A stretch of 38,654 bases of DNA, taken from positions 26,508 to 65,161 of the forward strand of contig JBBIIG010000021.1 of assembly GCA_037446635.1 (NCBI GenBank), given 5' to 3'. The notes beneath the pieces were generated by a model. That model was not told the origin of the DNA. It saw only the letters and a list, made by a program, of their open reading frames with translations, and ran no database searches. The DNA comes from a bacterium. GTDB taxonomy: Bacteria > Zhuqueibacterota > Zhuqueibacteria > Oceanimicrobiales > Oceanimicrobiaceae. Both the position numbers and the translations under genes were made by a program. Positions 8,743 to 36,141 of the stretch are shown here, in pieces; positions within the stretch are counted from its first letter, which is position 1, and every line of letters begins with the position of its first letter.

Positions 8743-10590
8743 TTATTTTTCAGTAACAATCTCAACCCGCACCATTCCGCGCACCGCATTCGTCAAAAAA
8801 ACTCCATCCGCGGATTGCACGTCTTCCAAAGTTAAAACTTTCTCGATGGCGTTGGCGTGCGCCGCCAGAAATTCCTGGCGAAAGACGCCGTTCAATAGTC
8901 CGCACTCAATCGGAGGAGTGTAGTAAATTCCATTCTTTTTTATGAAAACGTTGGAGATGGCACCCTCGGTGATCTGATCTTTTTCATTCATAAAAATCAC
9001 GTCAAAAAATCCCCGTGCTGAATATTTTTCGAATTCACTTTGATACAAATCGCGGCGCGTGGTTTTGTGAAACAAAAACACGTCGCGCGACGACGTTCGC
9101 GCCGATGAAACCGCCGCGCGCCCCAATTCTATTTTTTGATACGCCAATGGCTCGGCGCTAACCTGAACGTTTCCTTCTTTATTCAAAACCAGCCGGACTT
9201 TGTAGCGGCCCGAAATATGAAAGCGCCGTTCCAGGTCACGGAGGCCTTTCAGAACTTCATCTTCATCGTACAAAAAATCAAAATAAGCCGCCGACTCGCG
9301 CAGCCGTTTTAAATGCAGCGGCAGGCGCTGAAAACCGCCGCGCCAAAGTATAGTTTCAATTAACGAAAATTCGCGGTAGGGTTCAATCAAAAAATTGGCT
9401 TTGAGCCGGCATTCCTCGAATTCGGCGGCCGCGTCGGAGTCGTAAACCACGCCGCTGCCGACGCCCATTTCACCGCGGCCATTTTCGATAACCACGGTGC
9501 GAATGGGCACGTTGAACACCGCATTCCCTCCCGGCGCGATCATGCCAATGGCGCCGGTGTAAACGCCGCGCGGCGCGCGCTCCAGCTCGCGGATGATTTG
9601 CATGGTGCGGATTTTCGGTGCGCCGGTCACCGACCCGGACGGAAAAATACTTTTGAAAAGATCAAAGTACGACAGGCCGTTTTTTAACTCGCTGGCGATT
9701 GTCGAGGTCATTTGAAAAAGTGTGTTGTATTTTTCCACCGAGTAAAGATTTGACACCCGCACGCTGCCGGTTTTGGAAATGCGGCCCAGGTCGTTGCGCA
9801 GCAAATCGACGATCATCACGTTTTCGCTGCGGTTCTTTTCGTCGCTGGCCAAACGCTGCGCTAGCGCTTGATCTTCAGCAAACGTACGTCCGCGCGCCAT
9901 CGTGCCTTTCATCGGGCGGACGGTGATCTGACTTCCCGCTCTTTTAAAAAACAGTTCCGGCGAAAACGAAAGAATGTAGCGATCGCGAATTTTGATGAAC
10001 GCGTTATATGCCACCTCCTGCTTCTTTTTCAAATCCTGATAAAGCGGATAGGGATGACCGGCGAAATCAAACTTGTACTTAGTGGTGAAATTGACTTGAT
10101 AGGTGTCGCCGGCTTCAATGTATTTTTTGATTTGCCAAATTCGGCTCTCATAATCACTCGGCAAAATGGCGAGCTGCAGGTTGGAGATCGCATGCGGCGG
10201 CGGCGGTGCGTCCGAGTCGGCAAACCACTCCTGCTGGAAATCGATGCAGGCTCCCGTTTGATGATCGAAAATGAACGGCTTTTCAAACCGGCCTAACCAA
10301 ATCAACGGCAGAGCTTCCGGGGTGCGCTTTTTGACTTGATTAGTCAAATAGTAGCCGAGTTCATACGAAAAAAATCCAGCAAGAAAATAGCCCGGCGCGT
10401 TTTCATCGATCTGCGCGAAGACTTCGGGAATGCGTTCATCCTCGCGCGCTTCGAGAATTGCGCGCGGATTGATGAACAAAAAGCTGTGTCTGTTTTCGGG
10501 ATCGAATTTGTTGGTTTCCAACAAAATGAAGATCTCGTGGGAATCGATCCAATCGATTTTGAACGGCGGCAAGCGGTGGCTTTGCTTCAT
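8743..10590 (-). CDS. pabB: Aminodeoxychorismate synthase component I fused to an ADC lyase / class IV aminotransferase domain
   Basis: GDTYQVN, SPELFF, PMKGT, ENVMIVDLLRNDL and FPSGSVTGAPK, followed by HKTT, EGAISN, GLLNGVFR and NAVRG. The start could be 10641. Confidence 0.92.
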   Translation of the reverse strand: MKQSHRLPPFKIDWIDSHEIFILLETNKFDPENRHSFLFINPRAILEAREDERIPEVFAQIDENAPGYFLAGFFSYELGYYLTNQVKKRTPEALPLIWLGRFEKPFIFDHQTGACIDFQQEWFADSDAPPPPHAISNLQLAILPSDYESRIWQIKKYIEAGDTYQVNFTTKYKFDFAGHPYPLYQDLKKKQEVAYNAFIKIRDRYILSFSPELFFKRAGSQITVRPMKGTMARGRTFAEDQALAQRLASDEKNRSENVMIVDLLRNDLGRISKTGSVRVSNLYSVEKYNTLFQMTSTIASELKNGLSYFDLFKSIFPSGSVTGAPKIRTMQIIRELERAPRGVYTGAIGMIAPGGNAVFNVPIRTVVIENGRGEMGVGSGVVYDSDAAAEFEECRLKANFLIEPYREFSLIETILWRGGFQRLPLHLKRLRESAAYFDFLYDEDEVLKGLRDLERRFHISGRYKVRLVLNKEGNVQVSAEPLAYQKIELGRAAVSSARTSSRDVFLFHKTTRRDLYQSEFEKYSARGFFDVIFMNEKDQITEGAISNVFIKKNGIYYTPPIECGLLNGVFRQEFLAAHANAIEKVLTLEDVQSADGVFLTNAVRGMVRVEIVTEK

Positions 10591-10710
10591 ATTCTGTGCG
10601 GAGAGTTTTGAAAATGTATCGCAATCAGAGCTAGAAGTCAACCCATATGTGAGCTTGCATCTTTTGCGGCGCGTGATTATAATTTCACAAAACCGATTTA
10701 ATGAGGTTGT

Positions 10711-11420: not shown

Positions 11421-14400
11421 TCAAACCGCCACGCCCATCAGCTTCGTTTCTAACACTGCAATCTCAGCGAGCCCCTCTTCCTCACGCCGGTTCTTTTCCT
11501 CCGGCTTCAACGGGCGCAGAACTTTGAAATCGGCGCGCCTGATTTCCGTGCGCTTGCCATTGATGGGAAGATAGAACCAGCCGTTTTCTTTCGTGAGTCC
11601 GAGAGAAAAATAGTGATCGACTTTTTGCAGCAGCTCGACGACTTCTTTCCAGTCCATCATGCGCTCCATCAGCTCGAGGCCGTCTTTCCAATCGCACTCT
11701 TTAATCACTTGTCCAAACAGCCGCACCAGTGTGCGCCATTCTTTGCCGGTGAACCGTTCTTCGATAAGCGACTTCAGCGCTTGCGAATCGCGATTGAGTT
11801 GCTGGAAGTCAGTCACCGTTTCCGGAACATCGCTGAGCAGATCGAGCAGTGAGTCGAGCGCATCCTGCTTTTCCGCCAACGGCCAATCTTCCGATTTCAA
11901 CGTGTACTTCGCGAGACTGCGCCAGCGCTCGAGGTAATCCTGCCAATTTTTTTCCGAGAAAGTGCGCTTGACCAAATTGGCGAGGTTGCGATAGACGGCG
12001 ACCCAATCTTCGGAGAGAAAACCCACGTCGAGGGCGTTGGCGAACTGCGCTTTCGTGATGCGATCGTCGGGATCATAAATGATAACTTTCCCGGCGGACG
12101 CGCCGGCCAAAATGCTGTTGCCCGCAAACGGCAAATATTTTCGGCGCAGCACGCCCTGCTCGTCCCACTCCAGCCCTAACATCAAAACCATGCCGCCCAT
12201 CAGCGACTCGGCGAGGTACTCCATCGCCGAACCGACAATCACCACTTTCAATCCCGGCCCCGTCGGGCTGCTGACGCTGTTGATCACCCAGCGCGTGCCG
12301 ACGTTGTCGCGCACGAAAATCTCTCCGCCTTTTGCGCCGTAAACGCCGGTATTGCCGGCGAGTCCGTGCACGACCACCGTGCCGGAGTGAATGATCTTTG
12401 CCATGTCGCTTTGCGCGTCGGCATGCACGTGCACCGTTCCGCCCATCAGCGAGTTGCCGATGTCCTGCCCCGGGCTGCCGTAGAGATGCAACTCCAGTCC
12501 CTGCGTGTTGGGGCCAAAGCCGGTGCCGAGATAACGCTGGCCAGTAATTTTATAAACGATGAATTTGTGCCAGCCTTTCTCATACGCGCCGATGAGGGCA
12601 CGCGCCAGCGAATCGTGGCCTTCCGCTGGAAATCCGGAAGCATCGACTACCAGCACCTGTCGATCGTCGCTGCAAGTTGGAATATCGCGATAACAAAAAC
12701 GTGTGACGCGATGAAACTTGCGCCCGCTCTGTCCTTTATTGATGATCTCAATCTCATCGAACGCGGCGTTCAACCCCTCGTTGACCATTTGAATCAACAA
12801 CGCGCGTTTCTTTGTATCAGCGCCGACGTCTATTCCTTGCATGCGATCGCGAATCAAAGTGAGCGCTGCGATGGCCAACGTCAGAGCCTCATCCGAATTT
12901 TCGTTGTGCGCCAGCGCCTCCACCAGCCAGCGGAACGTGTTGTACTCCCAATTCTTCGCATTCGTTTTCACGAATCCGAAGATCTCCTCAGCTTTCTGGA
13001 ATCGCAGCCGGCCCAGCTCATCAAACAGATTCTTCGCGACAAACTGTACTTCCTCTGATTCAAAATTGATCGGCTGACGCATATCATAATGAGCGCCGCG
13101 CTCTTGCGGCAGAATGTTTCCAAACTTGTCGGCGATTTCAAATTTGTACTCGCCACGGGCTTTGCGCCGCAGATGATAAATGAGCGCGCCGCCGCCGCGC
13201 ACGTCGCCCTCGGAGTCCTGCTCCACGCTGCCACCGCGCACGATGCGCACGCGATCCGGCTCGTTGGACGCAAGCACACCGGAGTGATAAAGCGCGTCCA
13301 TCACCGAGCGGCACGCCTGTTCTTCGGATCCCACCAAGCCAATTGAAGCCCACTTGCCATTGTGACTTTGCTGCCAAACGAACACCGACGGCCGCAGCAC
13401 CGAAGTGTCCGTCAAGCCGATGATGCGCAAATCGCGAGTGACCGCGTCCTGATCGCCGATGATGAAAAACCACGGGCCGTCCGGCGAGCCGCCGACGTGC
13501 GTTTTCTGAATGGCTTCAAAATCTGCGGCGAGCTCCGGATTCACTTTTTTCAGTCGCTGCAAGTCGATGCCGGTCGTCGGCGCGATGGCCTCGATGATAT
13601 GTGTTTGCGGGTAGCCCATCTGTTTGAGAATAGAATACGCCTTCGCCGCCATTTCGGTGTCGGTGCGGAATTGCGGCGCGCCGCCGAATTGATCCCAGAA
13701 GCGCACCATCGCCACGTAATTGGCAAAGTCGCCGTTGTGGATGAGCGCTTCGTAAACGCGGCCGTAAAATGGGTGACTGCCGCCGCTGTACGGACTGAAC
13801 ACGGTGGGGAAGCGCTGGTGTCCGATCCAGATGTGCGCGCCGCGGTTGTAGATCACAACCGAGCAATTATTCTGTGCAGGAATAACTTCGATTTTCGTTT
13901 TTCGGTTTTCGATTTTCGAAATTTCATTATTTGAGATGTACTCGGCATCGCCGACGATCCAGTAATCCGCTGCCTGCTCCGCGTAGCCCACCAATTTCCA
14001 GATGCCGCCGTCTTTCATCATCGACGCCACAAACGCTTCCGGATTGGCGCCGCGCTGCTGCGGCTCGATGTAAAACTTTTGGTTGATTTCAAACGCGCGG
14101 CGATAGATGAACTCGTCTTCCAAATCGCGCCATAAATCTTTGTACTCCGGGGCTTCCCAGAATTTAGAATCTGGATCGATGTCGTCGAGATAGTCGTCCG
14201 TGAGCAGGTCGAAGTATTTCACAAAGTAGTCGATCCACTTGCCGGCGATGTTGAGATTTTGCAGCAGCTCGCGCGGGTGGCCGTTCGCCAGAATTTTGCG
14301 ATCGCAATCAGCGAGCCGGCAATCATCCAAAACCTGCTGCGCGAAATCCAGCAGTACCTCTTTTTTCGCGCGCACGAAGAAGCGGTACATGTCGCCGGGA

Positions 14401-17400
14401 TCGACGGCCAAACCGGCTTCTTCAAACGTGATGTCGCGGCCATCTTTTTGCACCCGCGGATTGCGGAAGCGCTCGAGGTTGGCGCTGGAAATTTCGACTG
14501 TTCGCCCGTTGCGATCGAAAACGTCGAAATCGCTGAGATGCTGCCGCGCGATTTCCAACATTTTCTGCTGCCGCTGCTTCTCCGGCGTTAACGCGATAAT
14601 TTGAAACGCATAGCAATCTTCAAAATCGTCAGCGAAAATTCCGCCCAGTCCCAAAATACCGCCGCCGCGGCCGTTGCCGCGATTGTGCATCCGCTGGCAG
14701 GCGGTTTGAATGCTCTCCACCGGTACTGGTTTCGTGCACGCAAAACTCACCACCCCGCAGGCATCCCGCTCACTCGGCTCCTCTTTCGTTTTATCCCACT
14801 CATTTACTACCACGCTTCGCGTTCTGCTCTTCGCTCCACCTGCCTGCGCAGCTTCCGCTTTCCGATTTTCGCTTTTCGATTTTCGCTCATCGATTTCCCG
14901 CCAGCCCCAGTCCGAGATCAAATCCGTCCGCCCGCGCAGCTCGCGAATATCTTTGACGCCCCACACGTACATCATTTTCATCACGTGCTGCATCACCGAA
15001 ACCTGCGTGTTGATCAACCACTGCGCGTTGAGTAAAATCTCTTTCTGCTCTTCGAGCTGCTCGACAGTGGTGGTGATGCCTTTCTGACAGCCGCCCGGTG
15101 CTTCGCAGTTGCCGCAGCGGTTGCACTGCTGCGCGACAATTTCCTGCGTTCCCAAAATCACTTTGTCCGCGCCTAAGATCAGCGCCTTCGCCATGTCATA
15201 CGCCGAACGAATGCCGCCGCTCGCCACCAGCGTAACTTTGTTGCGCACGCCCTGCTCCACCAAAAATTTGTGCACGTCGGAGAGTCCGTATTCCAGCGGC
15301 ATGGCGATGCGATTGCGGGCGATGTCCGGCGCCGCGCCAGTGCCGCCGGCCGTGGCGTCGATCTGAATTTCGTCCGCGCCACCGGTGACCAGTCCCAACG
15401 CCACGTGATAGACATCGACCGGCGTGGAAATTTTCACGGTGAGAATCGCGTCGGGATTGATGGTGCGCAGCCACTCGAGCATTTTCGTGACGTCTTCGAT
15501 GGAATAGACATCGTGGAACGGGAACGGACTGAACACGCTGATGCCGGCAATCACACCGCGCAAATCTTCCACCTGCGAAGTCACCTTCGCGCCGAGGATG
15601 TGTCCACCCAAGCCGGGCTTCGCGCCCTGCGCAAATTTCAAAACCACTTTTCGCACGCGGCGAATGGTATCTTCATTGACGCCGAAATAGCCGGTGGCGG
15701 TTTGGGTTGCCACCCAGTATTCCAACTGTTTGCCGAGCCAGCGCAATTCATCATTTGAAAGATTGGGGAAAAATTTCTGCAGACGTTCAAATTTCTCCAG
15801 CGGAAATCCGCCTTCGCCAGTGCCGGTGAAACGCTTCAGCGTGGCGCCGGCGAGGTAGCGCGCCAGCGTCAATTTCCAGCCGATGGAGCCGAGCGACATG
15901 TCCGCGGCGTCGATGGGAAAATGGTTGACGTACGGCTGGCATTCCGGGCGACGATGTTTGTTGATCACGCCGGCGGAAATCGAAATCGCGTCGAGGGCGG
16001 CAAGCACTTGCGGGTCGCCGGCGCGGAGGGCGCGATCGACTTCTTCCACCGCGCTTTCCAGGCTCATAGTCTTGCCTGCCTGCGCAGGCAGGCCGTTGAA
16101 ATTCACGGACCCAAATTTCGCGCAATCGAAACTGCCGCCGCCGAAATCCGCTCCCGTTTGCGGGACCTTGTGGGACGGAACCGCGCCAGAGGCCATCATC
16201 CAGGTGGCGGTGAGCACGTCGGCGTTCCAGCGCCGATCGCCGCGGGCACTGAGCATCGATTCCAGACTCGCTTTGCGCTCGCCAAGTAAATTTGCGTTGG
16301 GCGGTGGAACGACTTTGATCAATTTACTTAATTCAGAAAATTTCCAAGAAGCGGCTTTGGCTAACTCGCCATCTTCTTTGACTTTCTTTTCGTTTACGGA
16401 AATCGCCAGCCGCCGCAGCTTTTCATCTTCCACAATCGCGCGCATTTTTTGCTCGCGCTGGCGCAGATCGATCAAGCGCCCGGTCTCGCCGACGGTGCGG
16501 CGGATGTCGCGCACTCCGAACGCGCCCAAAACTTCCTGAATTTGTTTGTGCCACGACTTGAATAAATTATGCAAACGCTGCCCACCCTCATCGGGATCGA
16601 TCTCCGGCAGCGGCTCACCGCGTTTCTCCAACATGGGGAATTCGTGATTAAGCGCCACCAGCGCCGCGCGATCCAATACCAGTGCGCTCGCGCCCATCAT
16701 CATCGCGATGCCGAGATCCGCCGGCGATTTGATGCCGTTGGCGATAATCGAAACCTGCGTGTGCAGCGACTCACTCAACAATTTCTCATAACAAACTTGG
16801 ATGATATCCGCGGATTCGTGATAGCCTTTTTGTGAATTGTAATGACAGTTGAGATGAATGATCTCGGCGCCGGCTTTTGCCAACTCCAGCACGCGATCGG
16901 CAACGTCATCCGGTTCAGCGCCGACCTCGCATTCCACGAGATGAGAAACCACTAACTTCGAACTAAAGTTTTCACGCAACTCCGCAATCGACTTTAGACT
17001 TGCTCCGCTGAACTCGATCAGTGGAATCCGCTTGAACGACTCGAGTCGTTTGTCCTCAGCTTTCGTCCGCCAGGTGTTGATGGTATCAATTTCCTCCGGC
17101 AACAAGCGCAGCCCGATGTTGCCGGCGAAAGGATGCAGTGCATCAAAATTTTCGATGAATTTGAAAAAATCCAAAATCAAAATCGTGCCCTCACGATGGG
17201 CGGTGCGAGCGAAAATGCTGGCGAGATCACGCGTCTGTTTTCGGCCCGGCAGCGCCGGCAGCTCGAGCAAAATGGGGGTCGGCAAATCGAGGGTGTTAAA
17301 ATGAGTTTTGAGTCGCGGAAAACCGTTACCATTTGTTTCGTCGAACAAATGGAAAAGCGGCTTGCGGCCCAAATTCACGCCGATATCGATGGCCTCGCGG

Positions 17401-20400
17401 ATGCCATCGCGGGTGGGCCGCACGATCACCGAAAAGTCGAACATGTAGCGGTCGAACCCTTTGCCGCCAAAAAGTCCGGTGGAACCGGTGCCGCTGGTGG
17501 GCACGCCGCCGGTGCGCGCTTCTTCATTGATGCGGCGCACGTCTTCGCGAGTGAAATCTTCGCCCGCGAGATTCACATAATAATCATTGATATTGACGCG
17601 AATGGCATCGACCGGGCACTCGATGACGCAGTACAAGCAACCGTTGCAATGCTGGTGGCCGAGATCGATCTGAGCCGGCTTTGGAAAATGGATATATTCG
17701 CCGTTGCTCTGCCCCTGCAATTTCAGCGCTTTGGGAATTGGGCCGCCAGCGTCATTAAACCACGCTTTCGGAACTTTGCCGTCCAGCTCGCGCAGCAGAT
17801 CGTCGAGGCTGACCATTTGCCGCGGGTGGCGCGGATCCCAAAAGCCGCGTTGGCTGGTGGTGTGCTCGTCGCCGCACTTGCCGCAATTGATGCAGCGGTC
17901 GCGATCGACTTCAACTTTGTAAATGGCGAAATCGGTTTTCGGCTGCAGCGTCGTGAGGTCGCCGGATTTGGGGACGCGATAATTTCCTAGCACTTCTTTC
18001 ATGGCGCGCGCAACGCCGGGATGAGTTTTCAAAATGTCCATGTAACGGGCAATCGCGCCATCGACGTCGTAGCCTTCTTTGCGCAGCAGGGTTTCGAAAT
18101 CGTCGTACGTGGGCAGCTTTTTTTGGCACGCTGGAGAACCGCCGTTCTCGACTTCCAGCAGCATGTCGCTGATCGGGCAAACCGTCTCGCGTTCGGCGAC
18201 ACCGCAGCGAAAACAGAGCACGAAACGATCGACATCTTCCTGCGACAGCTTTTTGCCCTCGAAGAGATGCTGCTGCATGAACTCCATTTTAAAACGCGGC
18301 GTGATGTAAATCGCGTCCTTCATCAATTTCGGATCGCCGGACTTTTCCCAGATTTGCGCCAGCGGACAAATCATGCACGCCGAGCATTTGATGCAGCGGT
18401 GCAGGGCGTCGAAGTTTTCGCGCTTGTACGGCAGGGTTTGATCCGACTGCAATTTTTCTTTGACTTTGCCGCGCAATTTGAAACGTGCCTGTGTGCGCAG
18501 AGCCAGATCCAGCAGATCGATGGAGCGCTCGTGCAGCAGCAATTTTCCTAAGAGATTGTGGCCCCGGCTGCGGATTTCAGTGATCTTGCCCGGATTGAGA
18601 ATACGCGCGGGATCGAAACGATCTTTGGCGCGTTTGAGATCGCGAAACACTTTCACGCCCAGCGCCCGCCGTGACAGGCCGGCGAACCAGAGGCCAAAGC
18701 CGTACGGCCGTCCGCCAAATTTTTTGATGGCCCGCCGCGCCAGCACCGGCGCCAAACTGAAGTGGCGATAGTATTGAAACTTCAGCCGGCGGTCACTGAG
18801 AAACTGCGGCAGCACCAGCGCTTCGTCGGAGTTGAGGAGATACGCAACGGGTAAAATCTCGATGCCCAATTTCGAAGCCAGATCGGATACACTTTTCAGG
18901 TAGCCATCGACTTGAGACAAAGGCAGGATCACCTCCGCGGTCAGTAGGTCGCCTTTTTTGCGCAGCTTCATGGGGGCGAAGCGCTCGTCCCAAAGAGCCT
19001 CGGCAACTTTGGGTGAGGCGACTTCGCAATTAGGTTTGGCGTAATCGACAAACGCGTCGCGATCGGCGGCGGAATCAAAAACCAAAAGCACCGTGTCGCG
19101 CGCCGGCGAATTGCTTTTGATCAAATCGGGGGAAAATAAGTCGCTGGATTTTTCTTCAGACTTGATCTTTTGGATTTGATCGAGATAAGCTTTTCCAAAA
19201 AATTCGACATGAATGGGTTTGAAAGGGACGCGCGCGGATTTAACGTCCACGGAGAGCATCTGCAAAAATTTGAAGGCGCTTTGTGAATCATTGAAATTCA
19301 GAACCACCGGAAAATCAGCAGCGGGCTTGGGCCGCGCTTTCAACGTAACTTCGGTGACGACGCCGAAGCGGCCGTTGGCGCCGAAATAATAAGCAAAATC
19401 CGGCGCGGATTTTTCCACTAATTTTTCCTCGCCATCGACGCCGACGACGCGGATGGACTCGACGGTGTCGCGGATGTGGCCGAAGCCGAACGCATTCAAA
19501 CCCAGTCCACCTTTGAAGGGCTCACCCACTGAAATAAATCCCGCGATGACGCCGTATTTGTTGCTGGGCCGGACCTTCAACGTCAAATGATGGCGATTGA
19601 GCGCTTCCTCGGCCTCATTAAAATCCACCGCGGCGCTAACCGTGATAGTTTGTTTTTCGGGTTCGACGAAAATCCTCTTTTCGAACGCAGCCATCTCCAA
19701 CACCACGCCGCCTTTGGTGAGCAGCGCGCCGCCAAGCGCCCAGGTTCCTCTTCCGCGCGGGGCAATGTTGATTTTATTTTTTGAAGCGTACGCCAAAAAC
19801 TTTTTGAGATGATCGACGGTGCGCGGGGCGAAAATGAGCTGCGGCGTGATGTTGAAAAGCGCGCGCAGTTTTTTGGGAATCGCGGCGTAATCGCGTGTGT
19901 AAACGGTTCGCCGAGAGAAGGGTTCAGTCTTAAAAAGCGCCTCCGCTTCTTCTTCGCCGAAACCCAAGTTGGAAACGATGTTTTCGAGCAGCTTTTGAGC
20001 TCGTTTCGTTGAGAGCTTCTCGAAGAACGCCATCGGCTTGGGGGTTGCGTCGTGTTCCCGTTCCCAGAGGGGCGAGTTTTCCCGCGACCGCCACCAGGCG
20101 CCGATCGCGTCGTGCAGGCGATTGTTCGTCGGTCGCGCACCCGCGGCGGCAAATGCCAGCAGGTCGGCAGTGGAAAGGTTACCATTGAGTTGGGCGCTGA
20201 AAAGCTGATCGTTATCGATCATCACTTTCAAGCGATTGCGCTGCACTTCCCCAAGTTGCCAGGGAAAGCCTTCCTGCGCATCCACGGACACGCGCCCTAA
20301 ATTGGCAAAGGTTTTTTCGCGGCCGCCATTGAAAAACTGCTCGAGGGCCAAACGTTGGGAAAACGCGCGGCGTTCGTCCTCGGCGGGCGCTGCGGAGTTA

Positions 20401-20516
20401 GAATTGGAGGCTGTAGAAATTTTGTTGAGAATCAAAGCTGGTTGGTCCAGATGTAAGTTCATAAGATGCCGCTTTGTTTTGCTTAAATTTGAGGAGAGCG
20501 TACATACATAAAACAT
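11421..20516 (-). CDS. Giant glutamate-synthase-related fusion: FAD-binding oxidoreductase + 4Fe-4S modules + degenerate FMN barrel + Glu_synthase FMN barrel + class II GATase + GXGXG domain
   Basis: PRGRGT..GG and FDP..ILNPGK (VAO/GlcD-type FAD, ~19850-18580). CxxCxxC motifs at ~18395, 17894 and 17649. MSLGS, TGEGG, KFAQGAKPGLGGH, GGTGAAP, ASGGIR and CNRCGNC..GGC (~16240-14910). ERDACG, RGNGRGGG, GHQRFPT, HPF, HNGDFANY, TDTE, DGPW and LRP (~14760-13100). GQRYLGTG, GSPGQDIG and GNTGVYGAKGG (~12660-12040). Alternative start 20462. Confidence 0.88.
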   Translation of the reverse strand: MFYVCTLSSNLSKTKRHLMNLHLDQPALILNKISTASNSNSAAPAEDERRAFSQRLALEQFFNGGREKTFANLGRVSVDAQEGFPWQLGEVQRNRLKVMIDNDQLFSAQLNGNLSTADLLAFAAAGARPTNNRLHDAIGAWWRSRENSPLWEREHDATPKPMAFFEKLSTKRAQKLLENIVSNLGFGEEEAEALFKTEPFSRRTVYTRDYAAIPKKLRALFNITPQLIFAPRTVDHLKKFLAYASKNKINIAPRGRGTWALGGALLTKGGVVLEMAAFEKRIFVEPEKQTITVSAAVDFNEAEEALNRHHLTLKVRPSNKYGVIAGFISVGEPFKGGLGLNAFGFGHIRDTVESIRVVGVDGEEKLVEKSAPDFAYYFGANGRFGVVTEVTLKARPKPAADFPVVLNFNDSQSAFKFLQMLSVDVKSARVPFKPIHVEFFGKAYLDQIQKIKSEEKSSDLFSPDLIKSNSPARDTVLLVFDSAADRDAFVDYAKPNCEVASPKVAEALWDERFAPMKLRKKGDLLTAEVILPLSQVDGYLKSVSDLASKLGIEILPVAYLLNSDEALVLPQFLSDRRLKFQYYRHFSLAPVLARRAIKKFGGRPYGFGLWFAGLSRRALGVKVFRDLKRAKDRFDPARILNPGKITEIRSRGHNLLGKLLLHERSIDLLDLALRTQARFKLRGKVKEKLQSDQTLPYKRENFDALHRCIKCSACMICPLAQIWEKSGDPKLMKDAIYITPRFKMEFMQQHLFEGKKLSQEDVDRFVLCFRCGVAERETVCPISDMLLEVENGGSPACQKKLPTYDDFETLLRKEGYDVDGAIARYMDILKTHPGVARAMKEVLGNYRVPKSGDLTTLQPKTDFAIYKVEVDRDRCINCGKCGDEHTTSQRGFWDPRHPRQMVSLDDLLRELDGKVPKAWFNDAGGPIPKALKLQGQSNGEYIHFPKPAQIDLGHQHCNGCLYCVIECPVDAIRVNINDYYVNLAGEDFTREDVRRINEEARTGGVPTSGTGSTGLFGGKGFDRYMFDFSVIVRPTRDGIREAIDIGVNLGRKPLFHLFDETNGNGFPRLKTHFNTLDLPTPILLELPALPGRKQTRDLASIFARTAHREGTILILDFFKFIENFDALHPFAGNIGLRLLPEEIDTINTWRTKAEDKRLESFKRIPLIEFSGASLKSIAELRENFSSKLVVSHLVECEVGAEPDDVADRVLELAKAGAEIIHLNCHYNSQKGYHESADIIQVCYEKLLSESLHTQVSIIANGIKSPADLGIAMMMGASALVLDRAALVALNHEFPMLEKRGEPLPEIDPDEGGQRLHNLFKSWHKQIQEVLGAFGVRDIRRTVGETGRLIDLRQREQKMRAIVEDEKLRRLAISVNEKKVKEDGELAKAASWKFSELSKLIKVVPPPNANLLGERKASLESMLSARGDRRWNADVLTATWMMASGAVPSHKVPQTGADFGGGSFDCAKFGSVNFNGLPAQAGKTMSLESAVEEVDRALRAGDPQVLAALDAISISAGVINKHRRPECQPYVNHFPIDAADMSLGSIGWKLTLARYLAGATLKRFTGTGEGGFPLEKFERLQKFFPNLSNDELRWLGKQLEYWVATQTATGYFGVNEDTIRRVRKVVLKFAQGAKPGLGGHILGAKVTSQVEDLRGVIAGISVFSPFPFHDVYSIEDVTKMLEWLRTINPDAILTVKISTPVDVYHVALGLVTGGADEIQIDATAGGTGAAPDIARNRIAMPLEYGLSDVHKFLVEQGVRNKVTLVASGGIRSAYDMAKALILGADKVILGTQEIVAQQCNRCGNCEAPGGCQKGITTTVEQLEEQKEILLNAQWLINTQVSVMQHVMKMMYVWGVKDIRELRGRTDLISDWGWREIDERKSKSENRKAEAAQAGGAKSRTRSVVVNEWDKTKEEPSERDACGVVSFACTKPVPVESIQTACQRMHNRGNGRGGGILGLGGIFADDFEDCYAFQIIALTPEKQRQQKMLEIARQHLSDFDVFDRNGRTVEISSANLERFRNPRVQKDGRDITFEEAGLAVDPGDMYRFFVRAKKEVLLDFAQQVLDDCRLADCDRKILANGHPRELLQNLNIAGKWIDYFVKYFDLLTDDYLDDIDPDSKFWEAPEYKDLWRDLEDEFIYRRAFEINQKFYIEPQQRGANPEAFVASMMKDGGIWKLVGYAEQAADYWIVGDAEYISNNEISKIENRKTKIEVIPAQNNCSVVIYNRGAHIWIGHQRFPTVFSPYSGGSHPFYGRVYEALIHNGDFANYVAMVRFWDQFGGAPQFRTDTEMAAKAYSILKQMGYPQTHIIEAIAPTTGIDLQRLKKVNPELAADFEAIQKTHVGGSPDGPWFFIIGDQDAVTRDLRIIGLTDTSVLRPSVFVWQQSHNGKWASIGLVGSEEQACRSVMDALYHSGVLASNEPDRVRIVRGGSVEQDSEGDVRGGGALIYHLRRKARGEYKFEIADKFGNILPQERGAHYDMRQPINFESEEVQFVAKNLFDELGRLRFQKAEEIFGFVKTNAKNWEYNTFRWLVEALAHNENSDEALTLAIAALTLIRDRMQGIDVGADTKKRALLIQMVNEGLNAAFDEIEIINKGQSGRKFHRVTRFCYRDIPTCSDDRQVLVVDASGFPAEGHDSLARALIGAYEKGWHKFIVYKITGQRYLGTGFGPNTQGLELHLYGSPGQDIGNSLMGGTVHVHADAQSDMAKIIHSGTVVVHGLAGNTGVYGAKGGEIFVRDNVGTRWVINSVSSPTGPGLKVVIVGSAMEYLAESLMGGMVLMLGLEWDEQGVLRRKYLPFAGNSILAGASAGKVIIYDPDDRITKAQFANALDVGFLSEDWVAVYRNLANLVKRTFSEKNWQDYLERWRSLAKYTLKSEDWPLAEKQDALDSLLDLLSDVPETVTDFQQLNRDSQALKSLIEERFTGKEWRTLVRLFGQVIKECDWKDGLELMERMMDWKEVVELLQKVDHYFSLGLTKENGWFYLPINGKRTEIRRADFKVLRPLKPEEKNRREEEGLAEIAVLETKLMGVAV
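13887..13925. repeat. In-frame 7-bp tandem repeat (AAAA[N]CG on -) within the GATase domain
   Basis: On -: AATTTCG AAAATCG AAAACCG AAAAACG AAAATCG, encoding ISKIENRKTKIE. Confidence 0.7.
14851..14896. repeat. In-frame 7-bp tandem repeat in the FMN-GATase linker
   Basis: On -: AAATCGA TGAGCGA AAATCGA AAAGCGA AAATCGG AAAGCGG, encoding EIDERKSKSENRKAE. Confidence 0.7.
16074..16093. repeat. Perfect 20-bp palindrome inside coding sequence
   Basis: GCCTGCCTGCGCAGGCAGGC (encodes GLPAQAG). Partial copy CCTGCCTGCGCAG at 14839-14851. Confidence 0.75.
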
Positions 20517-20651: not shown

Positions 20652-20679
20652 TTGACAATCACATAAAACCGGTTATATT
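20652..20679 (+). promoter_or_regulatory. Sigma70-type promoter for the ROK operon
   Basis: TTGACA (20652-20657), 16-bp spacer, TATATT (20674-20679), preceded by an A-rich UP-like tract. Confidence 0.7.
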
Positions 20680-20702
20680 AGTTGGTTGTTCAAACCAAAT
20701 AT
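20678..20702. promoter_or_regulatory. Putative ROK-repressor operator 1
   Basis: TTAGTTGGTTGTTCAAACCAAATAT, overlapping the -10/+1 region. It shares TTAGTTGGTT with the site at 21988. Confidence 0.65.
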
Positions 20703-20732
20703 ATTTCCCGGTCTGCTTTCCCCGGAGGCGTG

Positions 20733-21934
20733 TTGAAAATAAATCAAGACAACTTCATCGGCGGAAACGCAAAATTAGTCCGCAGCATCAACCGCGCTGT
20801 CATTCTCAACCTCATTCGCGAGAATCAACCCATCAGCCGCATCGAAATTGCGCGGCTGACCGGCCTGAACAAAAGCACGGTGTCCAGCATCGTCACCGAT
20901 TTATTAGAGGAAGACCTTCTCTACCAACAAGTCGAGCCCACGCCAAATGTCGGGCGCAACCCAATTAACTTGTGTCTAAAATTAGGCACCCACTTTGTCG
21001 GCGCCATCAACTTCGATTTCACACCGTCGCGCATCGCTATTGCCGACTTGGACGGCAGCATCAAAGAAACGGTGACCATCGAGGCGGTATCGGAAGACCC
21101 GCAGGCATTTGTCGCGCACTGCGTCGATGAGTTGTTTAAATTAAAAGCCCGCCTCAACATCGATCATCTTGAAGGCATTGGCGTCAGCGTGGCAGGCATC
21201 GTCGATCCGGTAAAAGCAGAGGTGGTGTTCGCCCCGCGTCTCGGTTGGGAAGATTTTAAGCTCGGCGAACTTCTGGAAAAATTGTGCCCGCCGGAAACGT
21301 TCGTCACCATCGACAACGACGCCCGCGCCTCGGCGCTGGCCGAATTGTGGTACGGCAATCACGATTTGAATCTCTCCAATTTTGTGTTTCTCTCGGTCGG
21401 GCCCGGCATTGGCACTGGCATCGTGGTGGGCAAAAATCTCATTTACGGAGATTCTTCCGCTGCCGGCGAATTCGGCCACATGACCCTGTTTGAAAGCGAT
21501 GTTTTGTGCACCTGCGGAAACTATGGCTGCTGGGAGGCCTATGCCTCGGAGCGGGCGACTATCAAACGCTACGCGGCCAAAAAATCACTCGCCGCGGCCA
21601 GCAGCTTGTCATTTCAGGATATTTTGGACGCAGCGATGAGCGGCGATCCCCACGCCAGCGAAATTTTACTCGAAACCGGCCATTATTTGGGGCTCGGCAT
21701 GGCCAATATCATCAAAGCGCTCGATCCAGAGGCAATTGTCATCGGCGGCCGCATTACCGCCGCCTGGGATATCATCTATCCCGAAATCATGCAAACCCTG
21801 TCACAGCGCGCGTTTTTTGGTAAAAAAAAACTTTACGAATCTTGCCAACTTCACTAAAAGTGCGGCCGCGCTTGTTGGGCGCCGCCACCTTAGCCATAAA
21901 GGAAATATTCAGCGACTTCCGGATCACACGTTAA
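20733..21934 (+). CDS. ROK-family transcriptional repressor (XylR/NagC-like), frameshifted at the A9 run 21822-21830
   Basis: N-terminal HTH (ISRIEIARLTGLNKSTVSSIV), NDA, GEFGH and CTCGNYGCWE. The ORF-track frame stops at 21857, but the -1 frame gives TLRILPTSLKVRPRLLGAATLAIKEIFSDFRITR* ending at 21934. GGAGG supports a start at 20730/20733. Confidence 0.88.
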
Positions 21935-21987
21935 ACTGCAATTTTGAAAATCAATCAAACTCGTTGGCGGTGTTTTTATGGCTAAAA

Positions 21988-22012
21988 TTAGTTGGTTTAG
22001 ACAACAAACTTA
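21988..22012. promoter_or_regulatory. Putative ROK-repressor operator 2 (XylR-box-like)
   Basis: TTAGTTGGTTTAGACAACAAACTTA, an imperfect palindrome 30 bp upstream of the kinase start. Confidence 0.7.
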
Positions 22013-22041
22013 ATTGATATGCTTGCTCATGGCGACTAAGA

Positions 22042-23046
22042 ATGAAAAAACCGGCTACGTTAGGCATTGATATCGGCGGTACGAACACAACTCTGGGTTT
22101 GGTGGATGCGGAAGGCAATTGCGTATATGAAGAATCATTTCCGACCCATGCACATGAATCGTTTTCAATTTTTCATCTTCGGCTCATAAAAAAAATAACC
22201 GCGATCCAGGAAAAATATGGCGACCAATACGAGGTGGTTGGAATTGGCGCGGCCGCGCCCACGGGAAATTATTCCCGCGGCGTCATCGAAGCTCCCTCCA
22301 ACTTCAAATGGGGAAAGGTTGATTTTGTGAATATTTTAAGCAGCCATTATCACTTGCCGGTGGCCATCACCAACGATGCCAAGGCGGCCGCGCTCGGAGA
22401 AATGGAATACGGCGCCGCCAGGGGGATGCAAAACTTTATGGTGGTGACCCTGGGCACGGGCGTCGGCAGCGGCATCGTAGTGAACGGTCAACTCATTTAC
22501 GGCCACGACGGCTTAGCCGGGGAATTCGGTCACACCACCGTTGAGCACGGCGGACGGCAATGCGGCTGCGGCCGGCTTGGCTGCCTCGAAACCTACGTCT
22601 CGTCCCGCGGCATTTGCCGAACTGTGTTCGAGCTGCTGGCCCGTTCCACTTGCGCCAGCGAACTTCGCCAGATTTCTTTCAACGATTTGACATCCGAAAA
22701 AATTTATCACGCGGCGCTGCGCCGTGATCCCCTTGCCGTGCAGGCCTTTGAATACACCGGAAAAATTTTGGGGCGCGCCCTCGCCGACGCTGTAACCTAT
22801 TTCAGCCCGCAAGCCATCATCCTTTATGGCGGTCTGGCAAAATCCGGCGAGCTTTTGCTCGCACCCACCCGGCGCTATTTTGAAAGCAGCCTGCTCGATA
22901 TCTACAAAAGCAAAATCGCGGTTTTGGTTTCTAAGGTGGCGAATGGCAGCGCCGCGGTGCTGGGCGCCAGCGCGCTCATTCGCCAGGAAATCGCAAAATC
23001 GCGAGACGGCGCAACGCTTAGAATTAATGGGATGATGGACGAATGA
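22042..23046 (+). CDS. ROK-family sugar kinase (glucokinase / GlcNAc kinase-like)
   Basis: GIDIGGT, NDAKAAALGE, TLGTGVGSG, GEFGH and CGCGRLGCLE. No HTH domain. Confidence 0.9.
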   Translation: MKKPATLGIDIGGTNTTLGLVDAEGNCVYEESFPTHAHESFSIFHLRLIKKITAIQEKYGDQYEVVGIGAAAPTGNYSRGVIEAPSNFKWGKVDFVNILSSHYHLPVAITNDAKAAALGEMEYGAARGMQNFMVVTLGTGVGSGIVVNGQLIYGHDGLAGEFGHTTVEHGGRQCGCGRLGCLETYVSSRGICRTVFELLARSTCASELRQISFNDLTSEKIYHAALRRDPLAVQAFEYTGKILGRALADAVTYFSPQAIILYGGLAKSGELLLAPTRRYFESSLLDIYKSKIAVLVSKVANGSAAVLGASALIRQEIAKSRDGATLRINGMMDE

Positions 23047-25382
23047 AACGTACCATCTCAAAAGTCGAAGAAATCGCCATTAGCCAAAGTGGTGAAAAAC
23101 TTATCTACTCGCCGCGCGAAAAAATCGCGACGATCGTCGTCGAAAATTTTCCGGCCCTCGGCAAGCTCGTCGCGCTGCGATTTATCGAATGGGCGCAGAA
23201 AAACGCCGGCTGGACCATCGCCCTCCCCACTGGCAAAACGCCCGAGCATTTTATCAAATGGGTGACGTACATTCTCAGCAACTGGCGCAGTCAAAAGGTT
23301 ATCAAGCTTTTGGAAGATTACGGCTTGGACCCCGCCATTAAGCCGGAAATGAAAAGCTTTTATTTCATTCAAATCGACGAGTTTTATCCCATCAATTCCT
23401 GGCAGCACAACAGCTTCTATTATTATGTGAATAAGTACTACCTCGAGGGCTTCGACCTCGACCCGCAAAAAGCGCTGCTGATCAATCCGAACGTCATCGG
23501 CCTGAGCCGCGATCAAAAATTGGAAGACATCTGGCCGCAAAACCTCGTTGATCTCACGCTCAGGACGCGCCATCCCGTTGATATTTTTGAAAAACGCCGC
23601 AAGCAAGTTTTAGACGCCGTCGATCAATTTTGCACCGACTACGAACGCAAGATTCGCGCGCTCGGCGGCATCGGATTTTTCCTCGGCGGCATTGGGCCAG
23701 ATGGCCACATCGGCTTCAACGTCGAAGGCTCGGATCACTTCTCAACCACCCGGCTCACCACTACCAATTACGAAACCCAGGCCGCTGCGGCCACGGATTT
23801 GGGCGGCATCGAAATCTCGCGCAACCGGCTCGTCATCACCATCGGGCTGCAAACCATCGTTCATAATCCGCAAACCACCGCCATCATCATGGCGGCCGGC
23901 GAGGCCAAAGCCGCGATTGTCGCCAAATCGATTGAATCGGAAAAAAGCAATGCCGTGCCGGCCTCGGTATTGCAGGAATTGCCCAATGCGACTTTTTACA
24001 TCACGCGCGGCGCAGCCAAATTACTCCTCGAACGGCGCTGCCATCACTTAAAAAAACAAGCGTTGACTAGCGACGATCAACTTCGCATATTCACTGACCT
24101 CGCGCTGGAGAATAAAAAACAGATCGTCGATCTCAACGAAGATGATTTTCAGCGCTCGCCATTTGGAAAACTGCTCTTGGAACGGCTCTCCAGCCCGCTG
24201 CCGCCGCTGCTCAAAAAAATCGAAACCGATTATCAGCAGCACATTCTGCGCGCCATGGATGCGCATCGCAACGAGATCTTCCTGCACACGGCGCCGCATC
24301 ATGATGACATCATGCTGGCCTATCTCCCCTATCTCGTGCGGCTGATGCGCGACCCCTCCAACAAACATTATTTCAATTATCTCACGAGCGGCTTCAACGC
24401 CGTTACCAACACTCACGTTCTCCACTTTATTGAAATCACTGCGCGCTTTTTGAAAACGCCAAAATTCAACGCGCTTTTGCAGGAGAATTATTTTCATCCC
24501 ACTCACGTCGCTTTTAGAAATCGCGACGTGCTGCACTATCTCGATGGTTTGGCCGCAGACGATCAATATGAAATGGAAACCGCGATGGCGCGGCGTTTTC
24601 TCAGAAACCTCGTCGAGATTTACGGCGAACAATCTCAAGCTGAATTTGAACGCCGCCTCGAAGAGCTGGCCGTCTACCTCAAAAAACAATACCCCGGCGC
24701 CAAAGATCGTCCGGATGTTCAGAAATTGAAGGGCATGATTCGCGAATGGGAAGGCGATATCAAATGGGGGTATTTCGGCCACAGCACCGAGGCCGTCATC
24801 CACTCGCGATTGGGATTTTACACCGGCGATATCTTCACCGAAGAGCCGGATATCGATCGCGACGTGCCGCCCATCCTCGCAACCTTGAAACGCGTGCGGC
24901 CAACCATTGTCACCGTCGCTTTTGATCCGGAAGGCAGTGGCCCGGACACCCATTACAAAGTGCTGCAAGCGATTTCTTCCGCGCTCAAGCTTTATCAAAA
25001 AGAATTTCCAGCGGCGAAAATCAAAGTTTGGGGATATCGCAACGTTTGGTACCGCTATCACCCCAGCGAGGCCAATCTTTTCATTCCAGTAACCCTGAAC
25101 GGAATGGCAATCATGAAAGACGTTTTTCTCAACGCCTTTCGCTCGCAAGCCACTGCCTCGTTTCCGAGCTATGAATACGACGGGCCGTTCTCCGGACTTG
25201 CCAAAAAAATTCAGGTCGAGCAATATCAATTCATGCGCACGATTCTCGGCAGCGATTTCTTCTATCATAATCCTGATTCGCGCGTGCGCTCCACCCGCGG
25301 CTTCATCTACTTGAAGGTGATGGAGTTGGACGAATTTTTCACCCACTCGCGCGAGTTGCGCAAGAAGACAGAAGATTTGTAA
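23043..25382 (+). CDS. nagB: Glucosamine-6-phosphate deaminase fused to a PIG-L/LmbE-like deacetylase domain
   Basis: LPTGKTP, IDEFYP, GGIGPDGHIGFN and PASVLQ in the N-half. APHHDD and GPDTHYK in the C-half. Confidence 0.85.
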   Translation: MKRTISKVEEIAISQSGEKLIYSPREKIATIVVENFPALGKLVALRFIEWAQKNAGWTIALPTGKTPEHFIKWVTYILSNWRSQKVIKLLEDYGLDPAIKPEMKSFYFIQIDEFYPINSWQHNSFYYYVNKYYLEGFDLDPQKALLINPNVIGLSRDQKLEDIWPQNLVDLTLRTRHPVDIFEKRRKQVLDAVDQFCTDYERKIRALGGIGFFLGGIGPDGHIGFNVEGSDHFSTTRLTTTNYETQAAAATDLGGIEISRNRLVITIGLQTIVHNPQTTAIIMAAGEAKAAIVAKSIESEKSNAVPASVLQELPNATFYITRGAAKLLLERRCHHLKKQALTSDDQLRIFTDLALENKKQIVDLNEDDFQRSPFGKLLLERLSSPLPPLLKKIETDYQQHILRAMDAHRNEIFLHTAPHHDDIMLAYLPYLVRLMRDPSNKHYFNYLTSGFNAVTNTHVLHFIEITARFLKTPKFNALLQENYFHPTHVAFRNRDVLHYLDGLAADDQYEMETAMARRFLRNLVEIYGEQSQAEFERRLEELAVYLKKQYPGAKDRPDVQKLKGMIREWEGDIKWGYFGHSTEAVIHSRLGFYTGDIFTEEPDIDRDVPPILATLKRVRPTIVTVAFDPEGSGPDTHYKVLQAISSALKLYQKEFPAAKIKVWGYRNVWYRYHPSEANLFIPVTLNGMAIMKDVFLNAFRSQATASFPSYEYDGPFSGLAKKIQVEQYQFMRTILGSDFFYHNPDSRVRSTRGFIYLKVMELDEFFTHSRELRKKTEDL

Positions 25383-25403
25383 CCCTTTGGGGTTGGCTCC
25401 TCT

Positions 25404-25477
25404 TTCCCACGCAGGAGCGTGGGAACGCCAGCGCGGGCCGAGAGTTCTCCGCCGCTCCCACGCAGAGCGTGGGAGCG
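25404..25477. repeat. Two REP-like palindromes in tandem
   Basis: TTCCCACGC-AGGA-GCGTGGGAA (25404-25425) and CGCTCCCACGC-AGA-GCGTGGGAGCG (25453-25477). Confidence 0.8.
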
Positions 25478-25495
25478 AGAATAATTTCGGATTTG

Positions 25496-25527
25496 TTTCG
25501 AGCTTCGGTTTTCGATATTCGAATTTT
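25496..25527. repeat. Intergenic 7-bp tandem repeat (TTCG core)
   Basis: TTTCGAG CTTCGGT TTTCGAT ATTCGAA. Confidence 0.6.
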
Positions 25528-25558
25528 CTAATCTCAAAAGCCTCGAAAGGAGGTAATC

Positions 25559-27448: not shown

Positions 27449-27463
27449 CGAAAAACCGGGGTG

Positions 27464-27480
27464 TCAAGCTTTTAGCTTGA
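27464..27480. repeat. Small intergenic hairpin
   Basis: TCAAGCT-TTT-AGCTTGA, flanked by GGGGTG ... CACTCC. Confidence 0.4.
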
Positions 27481-27535
27481 TCGATCTTGAAGTTTAGCAC
27501 TCCTAAGTTTTTCGCAATCCTATTGAGAGGCACGC

Positions 27536-29614: not shown

Positions 29615-29618
29615 GCTA

Positions 29619-29650
29619 AACTCTGTCAGGGTTAAGACCCTGACAGAGTT
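29619..29650. terminator. Perfect 14-bp stem hairpin (terminator, mRNA stabiliser or REP-like)
   Basis: AACTCTGTCAGGGT-TAAG-ACCCTGACAGAGTT directly after the GH20 stop. Only a short T-tract follows. Confidence 0.55.
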
Positions 29651-29724
29651 GGCTTTGGTGCGAATCGAACAATAAACTCCATCATCTAAATTTAGTTTAG
29701 TCCTTTTCAAAAAAAAGGAGAGCA

Positions 29725-32889: not shown

Positions 32890-32925
32890 AATCGCGAATT
32901 TTAACTATCTACTAGAGAGGGAAAA

Positions 32926-35067: not shown

Positions 35068-35103
35068 CGCCCTTATTTTGAATATCTAAGGTGGAGACCA
35101 AAC

Positions 35104-36111: not shown

Positions 36112-36141
36112 CTAGGAAATTCAAATTTTGGAGATAGCCCC

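Follow-up and report, generated by a model that had tools for sequence, protein, structure and literature searches.

The nearest known enzymes to the protein described here are the glutamate synthases (GltS) of Azospirillum brasilense and Synechocystis (accessible part of PMC8097209), i.e. GltB/GltD (1ea0, 2vdc and 6s6s) and ferredoxin-GltS (1ofd and 1ofe). They have in common with it a class II glutaminase, a pair of barrels, a GXGXG helix, the residues for flavin mononucleotide (FMN) and 2-oxoglutarate, iron-sulphur (Fe-S) cysteines beside the FMN and a leader before the catalytic cysteine. The electrons of characterised glutamate synthases come from ferredoxin, NADH or NADPH, and forms linked to F420 have been proposed (accessible parts of PMC8097209 and PMC3448663). 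The split archaeal-type GltS, including the putative F420-dependent FGltS, has the same domains and a swappable electron-input module, as far as the accessible parts of PMC3448663 and bioRxiv 2021.09.25.461819 go. N-methylglutamate synthase (MgsABC) also has glutaminase-like, GXGXG and FMN domains, but its subunits are small and encoded separately, next to gmaS and mgd, and the accessible part of PMC6237917 describes neither a dead barrel nor an arm binding flavin adenine dinucleotide (FAD). The stretch investigated here, called the window, comprises 38,654 nucleotides of contig JBBIIG010000021.1 (assembly GCA_037446635.1, positions 26,508 to 65,161, forward strand) from a bacterium of the Zhuqueibacterota. 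It contains one very long gene, on the minus strand at 11421..20516, whose product (the polyprotein) joins a FAD module to all domains of a glutamate synthase. Judged from its sequence and from structural models, the polyprotein is probably a single-gene glutamate synthase with a working built-in FAD electron input, and it very probably forms glutamate from 2-oxoglutarate in one form or another.

The gene is one frame of 3031 codons without internal stops, and codon-position GC is uniform through the whole frame (GC3 0.63-0.73 over 11 blocks). Pfam placed, in this order, FAD_binding_4 (residues 225-363, E 5e-21), FAD-oxidase_C (501-645), two Fe-S regions with Fer4-type matches (about 707-781 and 867-982), two stretches of Glu_synthase (the best at 1532-1853, E 1e-81), a weak GATase_6 (2227-2305, E 1e-3) and GXGXG (2659-2826). 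Both the uninterrupted frame and the domain order agree with the original prediction, which had been made from the letters of this DNA. Translation probably starts at ATG 20462 (Met19), giving 3013 residues and about 337 kDa; the database call (P0002) and aligned homologues from candidate division KSB1, the title borne by relatives in the same family, begin there. The features are as follows.

11421..20516, minus strand: whole reading frame of 3031 codons, counted from its first ATG; translation probably begins at 20462
19932..20462, minus strand: N-terminal extension, residues 19-195, lineage-specific, of no family
18567..19931, minus strand: FAD module, residues 196-650, with a VAO/PCMH fold as in D-lactate dehydrogenases
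18147..18419, minus strand: Fe-S dicluster 1, residues 700-790, C708/711/714/717 and C768/771/780
17592..17933, minus strand: Fe-S dicluster 2, residues 862-975, C875/878/881 and C957/960/963/967
16461..17564, minus strand: degenerate FMN-type ("dead") barrel, residues 985-1352, predicted structural counterpart of the central domain of GltB
14907..16256, minus strand: intact FMN/synthase barrel, residues 1421-1870, with conserved residues and Fe-S cysteines 1798/1801/1804/1810
14760..14906, minus strand: charged, poorly conserved linker, residues 1871-1919, last residues ERDA, putative cleavage site
14757..14759, minus strand: codon of Cys1920, nucleophile of the class II glutaminase, located inside the precursor chain
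13197..14759, minus strand: class II glutamine amidotransferase domain, residues 1920-2440
12027..13196, minus strand: helical middle region and GXGXG beta-helix, residues 2441-2830
11424..12026, minus strand: C-terminal tail, residues 2831-3031, partly clade-specific

A search for homologues returned 41 long matches, 40 of them to other proteins. FAD_binding_4, Glu_synthase and GXGXG occur together in 26 of the 40; five more are apparently partial members and nine cover just 7-10% of the query. These 26 database proteins span KSB1 (3000-3350 residues, 53-85% identity to the window protein), Thermodesulfobacteriota/Deltaproteobacteria (about 2530 residues, 28%) and Calditrichota (about 2880 residues, 27%). 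Their entries bear automatic names only, and no description of such a fused glutamate synthase was found in the literature searched, which took in few subscription papers and no supplements; the architecture had likewise not been recognised as described in the original prediction. Within the window's phylum, 26 of 167 genomes are carriers, seven with the window-protein type (the window's own genome included) and 19 with the 2880-residue type, counts which take in the unpublished genomes G158 and G162. Fused frames were read whole from the DNA of 14 other KSB1 genomes, and the remaining carriers were assigned by match pattern and frame length only, the copies of G162 and G048 ending at contig ends. 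The N-terminal extension is unrelated or missing in the aligned proteins of the other two clades, and neither it nor the C-terminal tail had a usable Atlas match. The helical middle region and the GXGXG beta-helix are also found in the split glutaminase-GXGXG subunit.

The polyprotein is not a GltB by domain order, by score or by partner. Canonical GltB has the order glutaminase-central-FMN-GXGXG in about 1500 residues, whereas here the glutaminase follows the FMN barrel and the "leader" before it consists of 1900 residues of working protein. The score with NF008730 was 191.9 bits against a cut-off of 1047, and GATase_2 was not matched, the glutaminase being too divergent. In place of GltD there are the fused VAO-type FAD domain and two diclusters. 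Of the permuted GltB that had been proposed, the displaced glutaminase stood, but the remaining domains are unscrambled, with the dead barrel at the position of the central domain. The second barrel aligns to A. brasilense GltB 908-1169 with few gaps (E 5e-47) and keeps K1627, Q1630, K1633, R1653, E1674, K1695, T1726, G1767, R1770 and T1790, which we take to be the FMN, 2-oxoglutarate and tunnel residues of the GltB structure literature. In an alignment of 15 fused proteins, nine of the 11 listed FMN-barrel positions and three of the four cluster cysteines are invariant; Q1605 is partly Glu outside the KSB1 type. The invariant cysteines 1798, 1804 and 1810 are equivalent to the three of the [3Fe-4S] motif of GltB, but their spacing differs and the KSB1 type has a fourth cysteine at 1801 that is Asp or Asn elsewhere, so that the cluster may be of another type. 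The "Cys triad" claimed for this barrel was correct for the three but missed the fourth.

The dead barrel lacks both the QGAKPG loop and the cysteine cluster, yet can be recognised from its sequence as a copy of the intact barrel (23% over 176 residues). An AlphaFold model of residues 862-1870 (predicted local distance difference test, pLDDT, 79; pTM 0.85), made without templates by a predictor whose training set probably included GltB, superposed as one body on GltB 451-1171 (1ea0_A; Z 29.3, root-mean-square deviation (rmsd) 3.6, 637 residues aligned), and the best row other than a GltS reached Z 22.5 with 280 aligned. The superposed part covers both the central domain (423-780) and the synthase domain (781-1202) of GltB as delimited in the accessible part of PMC8097209. 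In the model, the dead barrel is the equivalent of the GltB central domain; among split copies, one of two tested reached the Glu_syn_central cut-off. Of the upstream diclusters, the first has Ala at one ligand position in the KSB1 clade and the second has a clade-specific insertion and His at one Cys position; in the KSB1 type, two of these four clusters thus possess only three cysteines.

Shorter relatives of the two-barrel region were found in 346 proteins, and most of the 120 listed are about 970-residue proteins of the order Fe-S/dead barrel/Fe-S/FMN barrel from many lineages. Eighty metagenome loci with split genes were chosen by two motifs that characterise the mvhD lineage, a choice that under-samples split operons headed by a FAD gene. 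In 49 of them a dead barrel is followed by an FMN barrel and by glutaminase-GXGXG, as three genes (35 loci) or as two (14 loci), and most of the other 31 are cut short. The split proteins are 32-41% identical to the polyprotein and have its order, so that its "permutation" is, on the comparison of gene orders, apparently an operon order frozen into one gene. The collapse of a split-type operon, as originally proposed, is in agreement with the existence of two-gene, three-gene and partly fused forms. The polyprotein differs from split GltS in being one gene and in its input module, FAD_binding_4 instead of an FrhB-like, GltD-like or MvhD/MetVF module. In the split loci mvhD, metV or metF lies directly upstream in 68 of 80, often with glnA, amtB, PII, glnD, glnE, nrpR or carAB in the vicinity, and no FAD gene on the same strand was found in any of the 80. 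Two split forms within KSB1 (in genomes G045 and G010) have a dead-barrel gene without a match to the Fe-S dicluster profile.

A profile search with the FAD arm through 1.84 billion representatives revealed stand-alone FAD-Fe-S proteins of 600-750 residues and partial fusions of the order FAD-Fe-S-Fe-S-dead barrel of 1100-1220 residues, two clusters of which are named Chloroflexota. It also revealed a circular permutant, P0392 (3152 residues), with a signal-peptide-like start, the glutaminase cysteine at position 79 after EGG, and then GXGXG, FAD, Fe-S and both barrels; in P0406 (Omnitrophota, 3444 residues, partial) the part from FAD to FMN barrel lies within a giant frame. Both cluster with the KSB1 type in trees. 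A plasmid search for the partly fused form gave only distant FAD oxidases. In a quick tree, the FAD modules linked to a synthase group with 11 of the 12 stand-alone modules in a single clade (97%), from which the relatives fused to CCG are separate, and all full fusions join with 89% support. The quick FMN-barrel tree gives no resolved branching among KSB1/Omnitrophota-type, Calditrichota/Thermodesulfobacteriota-type and mvhD-type split forms. The FAD and barrel trees are thus compatible with either one or several fusion events.

The model of the FAD module (pLDDT 90) matched D-lactate dehydrogenases best (8jdy; Z 34.3, rmsd 2.6, 419 aligned). Its VAO/PCMH fold, the glycine motifs for FAD binding and the WxxR arginine are common to LctD, GlcD, mouse LDHD and D2HGDH (7qh2, 9qit, 8jdy and 6lpn), and W509, R512 (the WxxR arginine) and E528 are kept; the glycine motifs, R254, R512, E528 and Y605 are conserved across three clades that are about 28% identical. 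Unlike these enzymes, the module lacks HAGDGNLH and GEHG and has GxxYxxGx[WFY] instead (GRPYGFG for GEHG). The replaced motifs are presumably the metal-binding His, His and Glu and the catalytic His of D-2-hydroxyacid dehydrogenases. The claim of a fused VAO/GlcD-type flavoprotein is therefore borne out for the fold, but the module is not an ordinary GlcD or LctD; TIGR00387 scored 70 against a cut-off of 568, and no NCBIfam model exceeded its cut-off in six members scanned. The replacement motif was present in 109 of 146 new top profile matches, none of which had EHG, and appears to mark a large FAD subfamily.

FAD-module relatives are fused to CCG, NrfD or glycine-cleavage H domains; in P0439 and P0377, for example, the partners of the FAD subfamily are three glycine-cleavage H domains and CCG in one arrangement and a membrane anchor of the NrfD kind in the other. 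Twelve KSB1 loci (L150-L160 and L169) encode a conserved 1030-residue FAD-Fe-S-CCG protein of the His-less subfamily, upstream of an Nqr operon in seven of the 12 and always preceded by a conserved gene of about 145 codons. Since the synthase occupies the position of CCG in these relatives, electron flow from a donor through FAD and Fe-S to FMN is suggested by analogy. The FMN of GltS lies at about -240 mV and lactate at about -190 mV; the potential of NAD(P)H would suffice, and lactate would be slightly uphill, pulled by the overall reaction. As the donor, NAD(P)H is a tentative candidate, a small carboxylic acid is possible though rather doubtful, a protein or quinone-linked partner is somewhat unlikely, and that the FAD is vestigial is improbable. 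In one genome (G133, L058:3886-4974) a lactate-permease gene, apparently in pieces, lies directly upstream of the gene for a 2877-residue polyprotein; no other fetched locus contained one, nor did the window's genome, and this single locus was considered too weak to assign lactate as the donor.

A glutamate synthase in which FAD is not the entry point, with ferredoxin or another carrier reducing the Fe-S clusters directly and the FAD arm being structural, regulatory or a relic, would account for the loss of the metal-binding His/His/Glu and of GEHG. The core also occurs without the arm in split operons, where mvhD, metV or metF mostly stands upstream and a same-strand FAD gene was not found, and can therefore dispense with it. 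This explanation is nevertheless improbable in view of the residues conserved across the three clades, the confident model, and an arm that remains attached in the partial fusions and in the circular permutant.

The genome of the window is 97% complete with 0.3% contamination, and the polyprotein is its sole strong Glu_synthase match and its sole GXGXG match. A second, weak Glu_synthase match on contig C86 (E 2e-5), with frames of about 500 residues in five genomes, is probably another barrel enzyme. One glutamine synthetase gene is present, with amtB- and PII-like neighbours. The statement that GltD is not needed agrees with the sequences: a scan of 20 other frames in the window revealed nothing resembling gltD, and the best TIGR01317 score in the genome was 231, against a cut-off of 447.7. 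A GltD-like frame of 623 residues on contig C20 (L008:718-3760) was rejected as a partner, being under the cut-off and adjoining a Rieske-like gene; this flavoprotein has a C-terminal ferredoxin domain and probably belongs to a respiratory complex. Canonical GltB, detected by PF00310, occurs in four of the 26 carriers (none of the seven of window type) versus 65 of 141 other genomes, a fifth carrier (G158) having a divergent GltB. True GltD was found in three carriers, all with GltB, and glutamine synthetase in 23. A second member of the genus, with a 74% complete genome, encodes a canonical GltB but gave no match to the polyprotein. As the carriers are kin and not independent, this distribution is a pattern of replacement and not a statistic. 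The divergent GltB was seen in four genomes (G006, G139, G057 and G158; L145-L148), where frames of 1525-1625 residues in canonical order form a branch of their own and fall short of E 1e-60 with GATase_2.

The polyprotein might also be an amidotransferase-reductase that uses a different amine donor or a different oxo-acid acceptor, for instance an enzyme similar to N-methylglutamate synthase. According to the accessible part of PMC6237917, MgsA, MgsB and MgsC correspond to these three domain types, each with a gene of its own. The divergence of the glutaminase from GATase_2 also speaks for this reading, as does the presence of both the polyprotein and GltB in some genomes. Among the scanned window genes neither gmaS nor mgd was found, and a SoxD search gave no match anywhere, controls included. 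Against this, the residues of the 2-oxoglutarate and glutamine sites are conserved, a nitrogen-assimilation gene (glnA, amtB, PII, glnD, glnE or nrpR) lies within 28 of the 80 split-operon loci, and the genome has a single gene of the glutamine synthetase family, so that no separate gmaS was found. Kinship in role to N-methylglutamate synthase was not upheld, and a different substrate seems improbable.

Class II amidotransferases require their catalytic cysteine at the N-terminus. The catalytic residues of such a glutaminase (Cys, Arg, HxR, Asn-Gly and Asp) are all present in the polyprotein, and the subunit profile matches the structures of PurF and GlmS. C1920, R1946, H2233, R2235, N2261, G2262 and D2286 are invariant in the 15 fused rows of alignment A1, and Cys1920 also in the 51 rows of A6. 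The cysteine is internal in the window protein and in all 31 other family proteins listed, preceded by ERDA at the close of a charged linker of variable length. Because Cys1920 is internal while class II enzymes need it N-terminal, we infer that the chain is cut at Ala1919-Cys1920 into pieces of about 212 and 126 kDa. Split glutaminase genes encode a leader, mostly of about 30-38 residues, whose final EGG precedes CG, a motif found in 47 of 50, and the two forms of A. brasilense GltB in the PDB are offset by 36 residues; leaders and offset provide a precedent for cleavage before the glutaminase cysteine, which is marked as Cys1 in the accessible part of PMC8097209. If the chain stayed uncut, the glutaminase would be silent and 2-oxoglutarate would be aminated with free ammonia, as in a glutamate dehydrogenase. 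The cysteine does lack a free amino group in the precursor, and the residues before it vary by clade (DA, SD, SN/TN), but neither the nucleophile nor any of the listed residues for glutamine binding varies, and the linker is charged and length-variable as expected for a cleaved loop, so that an uncut chain is quite unlikely.

Taken as a glutamate synthase, the polyprotein would catalyse the reaction glutamine + 2-oxoglutarate + 2 electrons to 2 glutamate. Cleavage of the precursor between Ala1919 and Cys1920, probably autocatalytic, would yield a redox chain of ~212 kDa and a glutaminase-GXGXG chain of ~126 kDa that would stay together. The redox chain would carry FAD, up to four Fe-S clusters, the dead barrel, and the FMN barrel together with the cluster that belongs to it. 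The freed cysteine would hydrolyse glutamine, and the ammonia would travel along the interface between the dead barrel and the FMN barrel to 2-oxoglutarate, as in GltB, whose central domain lines the ammonia tunnel. The imine would be reduced by FMNH2, and electrons would enter FAD as a pair, pass singly along the Fe-S chain and re-reduce FMN.

Several observations weigh against this assignment. Three genes of the glutamate dehydrogenase family are present, and the genome may not need the polyprotein for glutamate. Five of the 26 carriers also have a GltB in canonical order, which allows a different role, and in three, including one that is 95% complete, glutamine synthetase was not matched. 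No conserved nitrogen-metabolism genes were found among the scanned neighbours of fused genes. Within the protein, the catalytic set of known dehydrogenases is gone from the FAD module with the replacement of HAGDGNLH and GEHG, the FMN-contact lysine K1627 is Ala in the two clades outside the KSB1 type, and dicluster 2 is unplaced in the model (pLDDT <50 at model residues 18-97). One copy, in G055 (L015:5476-12644), is split over three frames of 1513, 752 and 161+ residues, by error or decay.

The reverse-running amino-acid oxidiser raised in the original prediction, in which glutamate would be oxidised at FMN and electrons would leave through FAD, could draw on the stand-alone relatives of the FAD module, whose joining to CCG or NrfD and position upstream of Nqr in seven of 12 KSB1 loci point to respiratory use. 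Hydrolysis of glutamine makes the glutamate synthase reaction effectively one-way, and in an oxidiser the intact glutaminase would be needless. The three genes of the glutamate dehydrogenase family could serve catabolism, and the CCG that follows Fe-S in the relatives is the likely acceptor, its place being taken here by the synthase; this reversal is accordingly very unlikely. An assembly artefact or read-through of separate genes, which might be suspected in a metagenome assembly with a copy in pieces in G055 and with contigs from three sequencing runs (two of which look like one data set) that are short, from related strains and nowhere cross the whole gene, is already refuted by independent genomes, the fused frame being complete in the DNA of 14 further KSB1 genomes and in 26 database proteins from three phyla, and indels of a related strain inside the gene that add up to multiples of three, and its probability is negligible.

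The neighbours of the polyprotein in the window are unrelated to it. A Leu/Phe-tRNA transferase gene converges on its 3' end, and a divergent ROK regulator heads genes for sugar use. The latter cluster (20682-37326) is co-directional and contains the ROK regulator, a ROK kinase, a sodium symporter, a GH20 hexosaminidase, a TonB-dependent receptor, a PorV-like gene and a 779-residue protein similar to glucosamine-6-phosphate deaminase; a near-consensus sigma-70 promoter lies at 20652-20679. At 8743-10641 (minus strand) aminodeoxychorismate synthase component I is fused to a class IV aminotransferase-like domain, presumably a PabB-PabC fusion.

The polyprotein family, which is found across several groups of uncultured bacteria, points to a further electron-input module in the main pathway of ammonia assimilation, and its members are often the sole glutamate-synthase candidate in their genomes. 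As all parts lie in one gene, expression and assay would be possible without guessing partners, and such an enzyme would give access to tests of the widespread FAD subfamily and of the split operons with a dead barrel. A further prediction from the family is that a class II amidotransferase matures internally, which would be unusual. The origin of the GltB central domain by duplication of an FMN barrel is an open point in the accessible part of PMC8097209, and a dead barrel that retains likeness to the FMN barrel and is modelled at the position of the central domain bears on it. A more far-reaching version, in which the synthase would be self-cleaving, with its redox half as a 1900-residue "propeptide", and would draw its electrons neither from NAD(P)H nor from ferredoxin but from a small organic acid oxidised at a VAO-type flavin site without metal, is in our estimation unlikely; if it were true, the dead barrel would show how the central domain of GltB arose.

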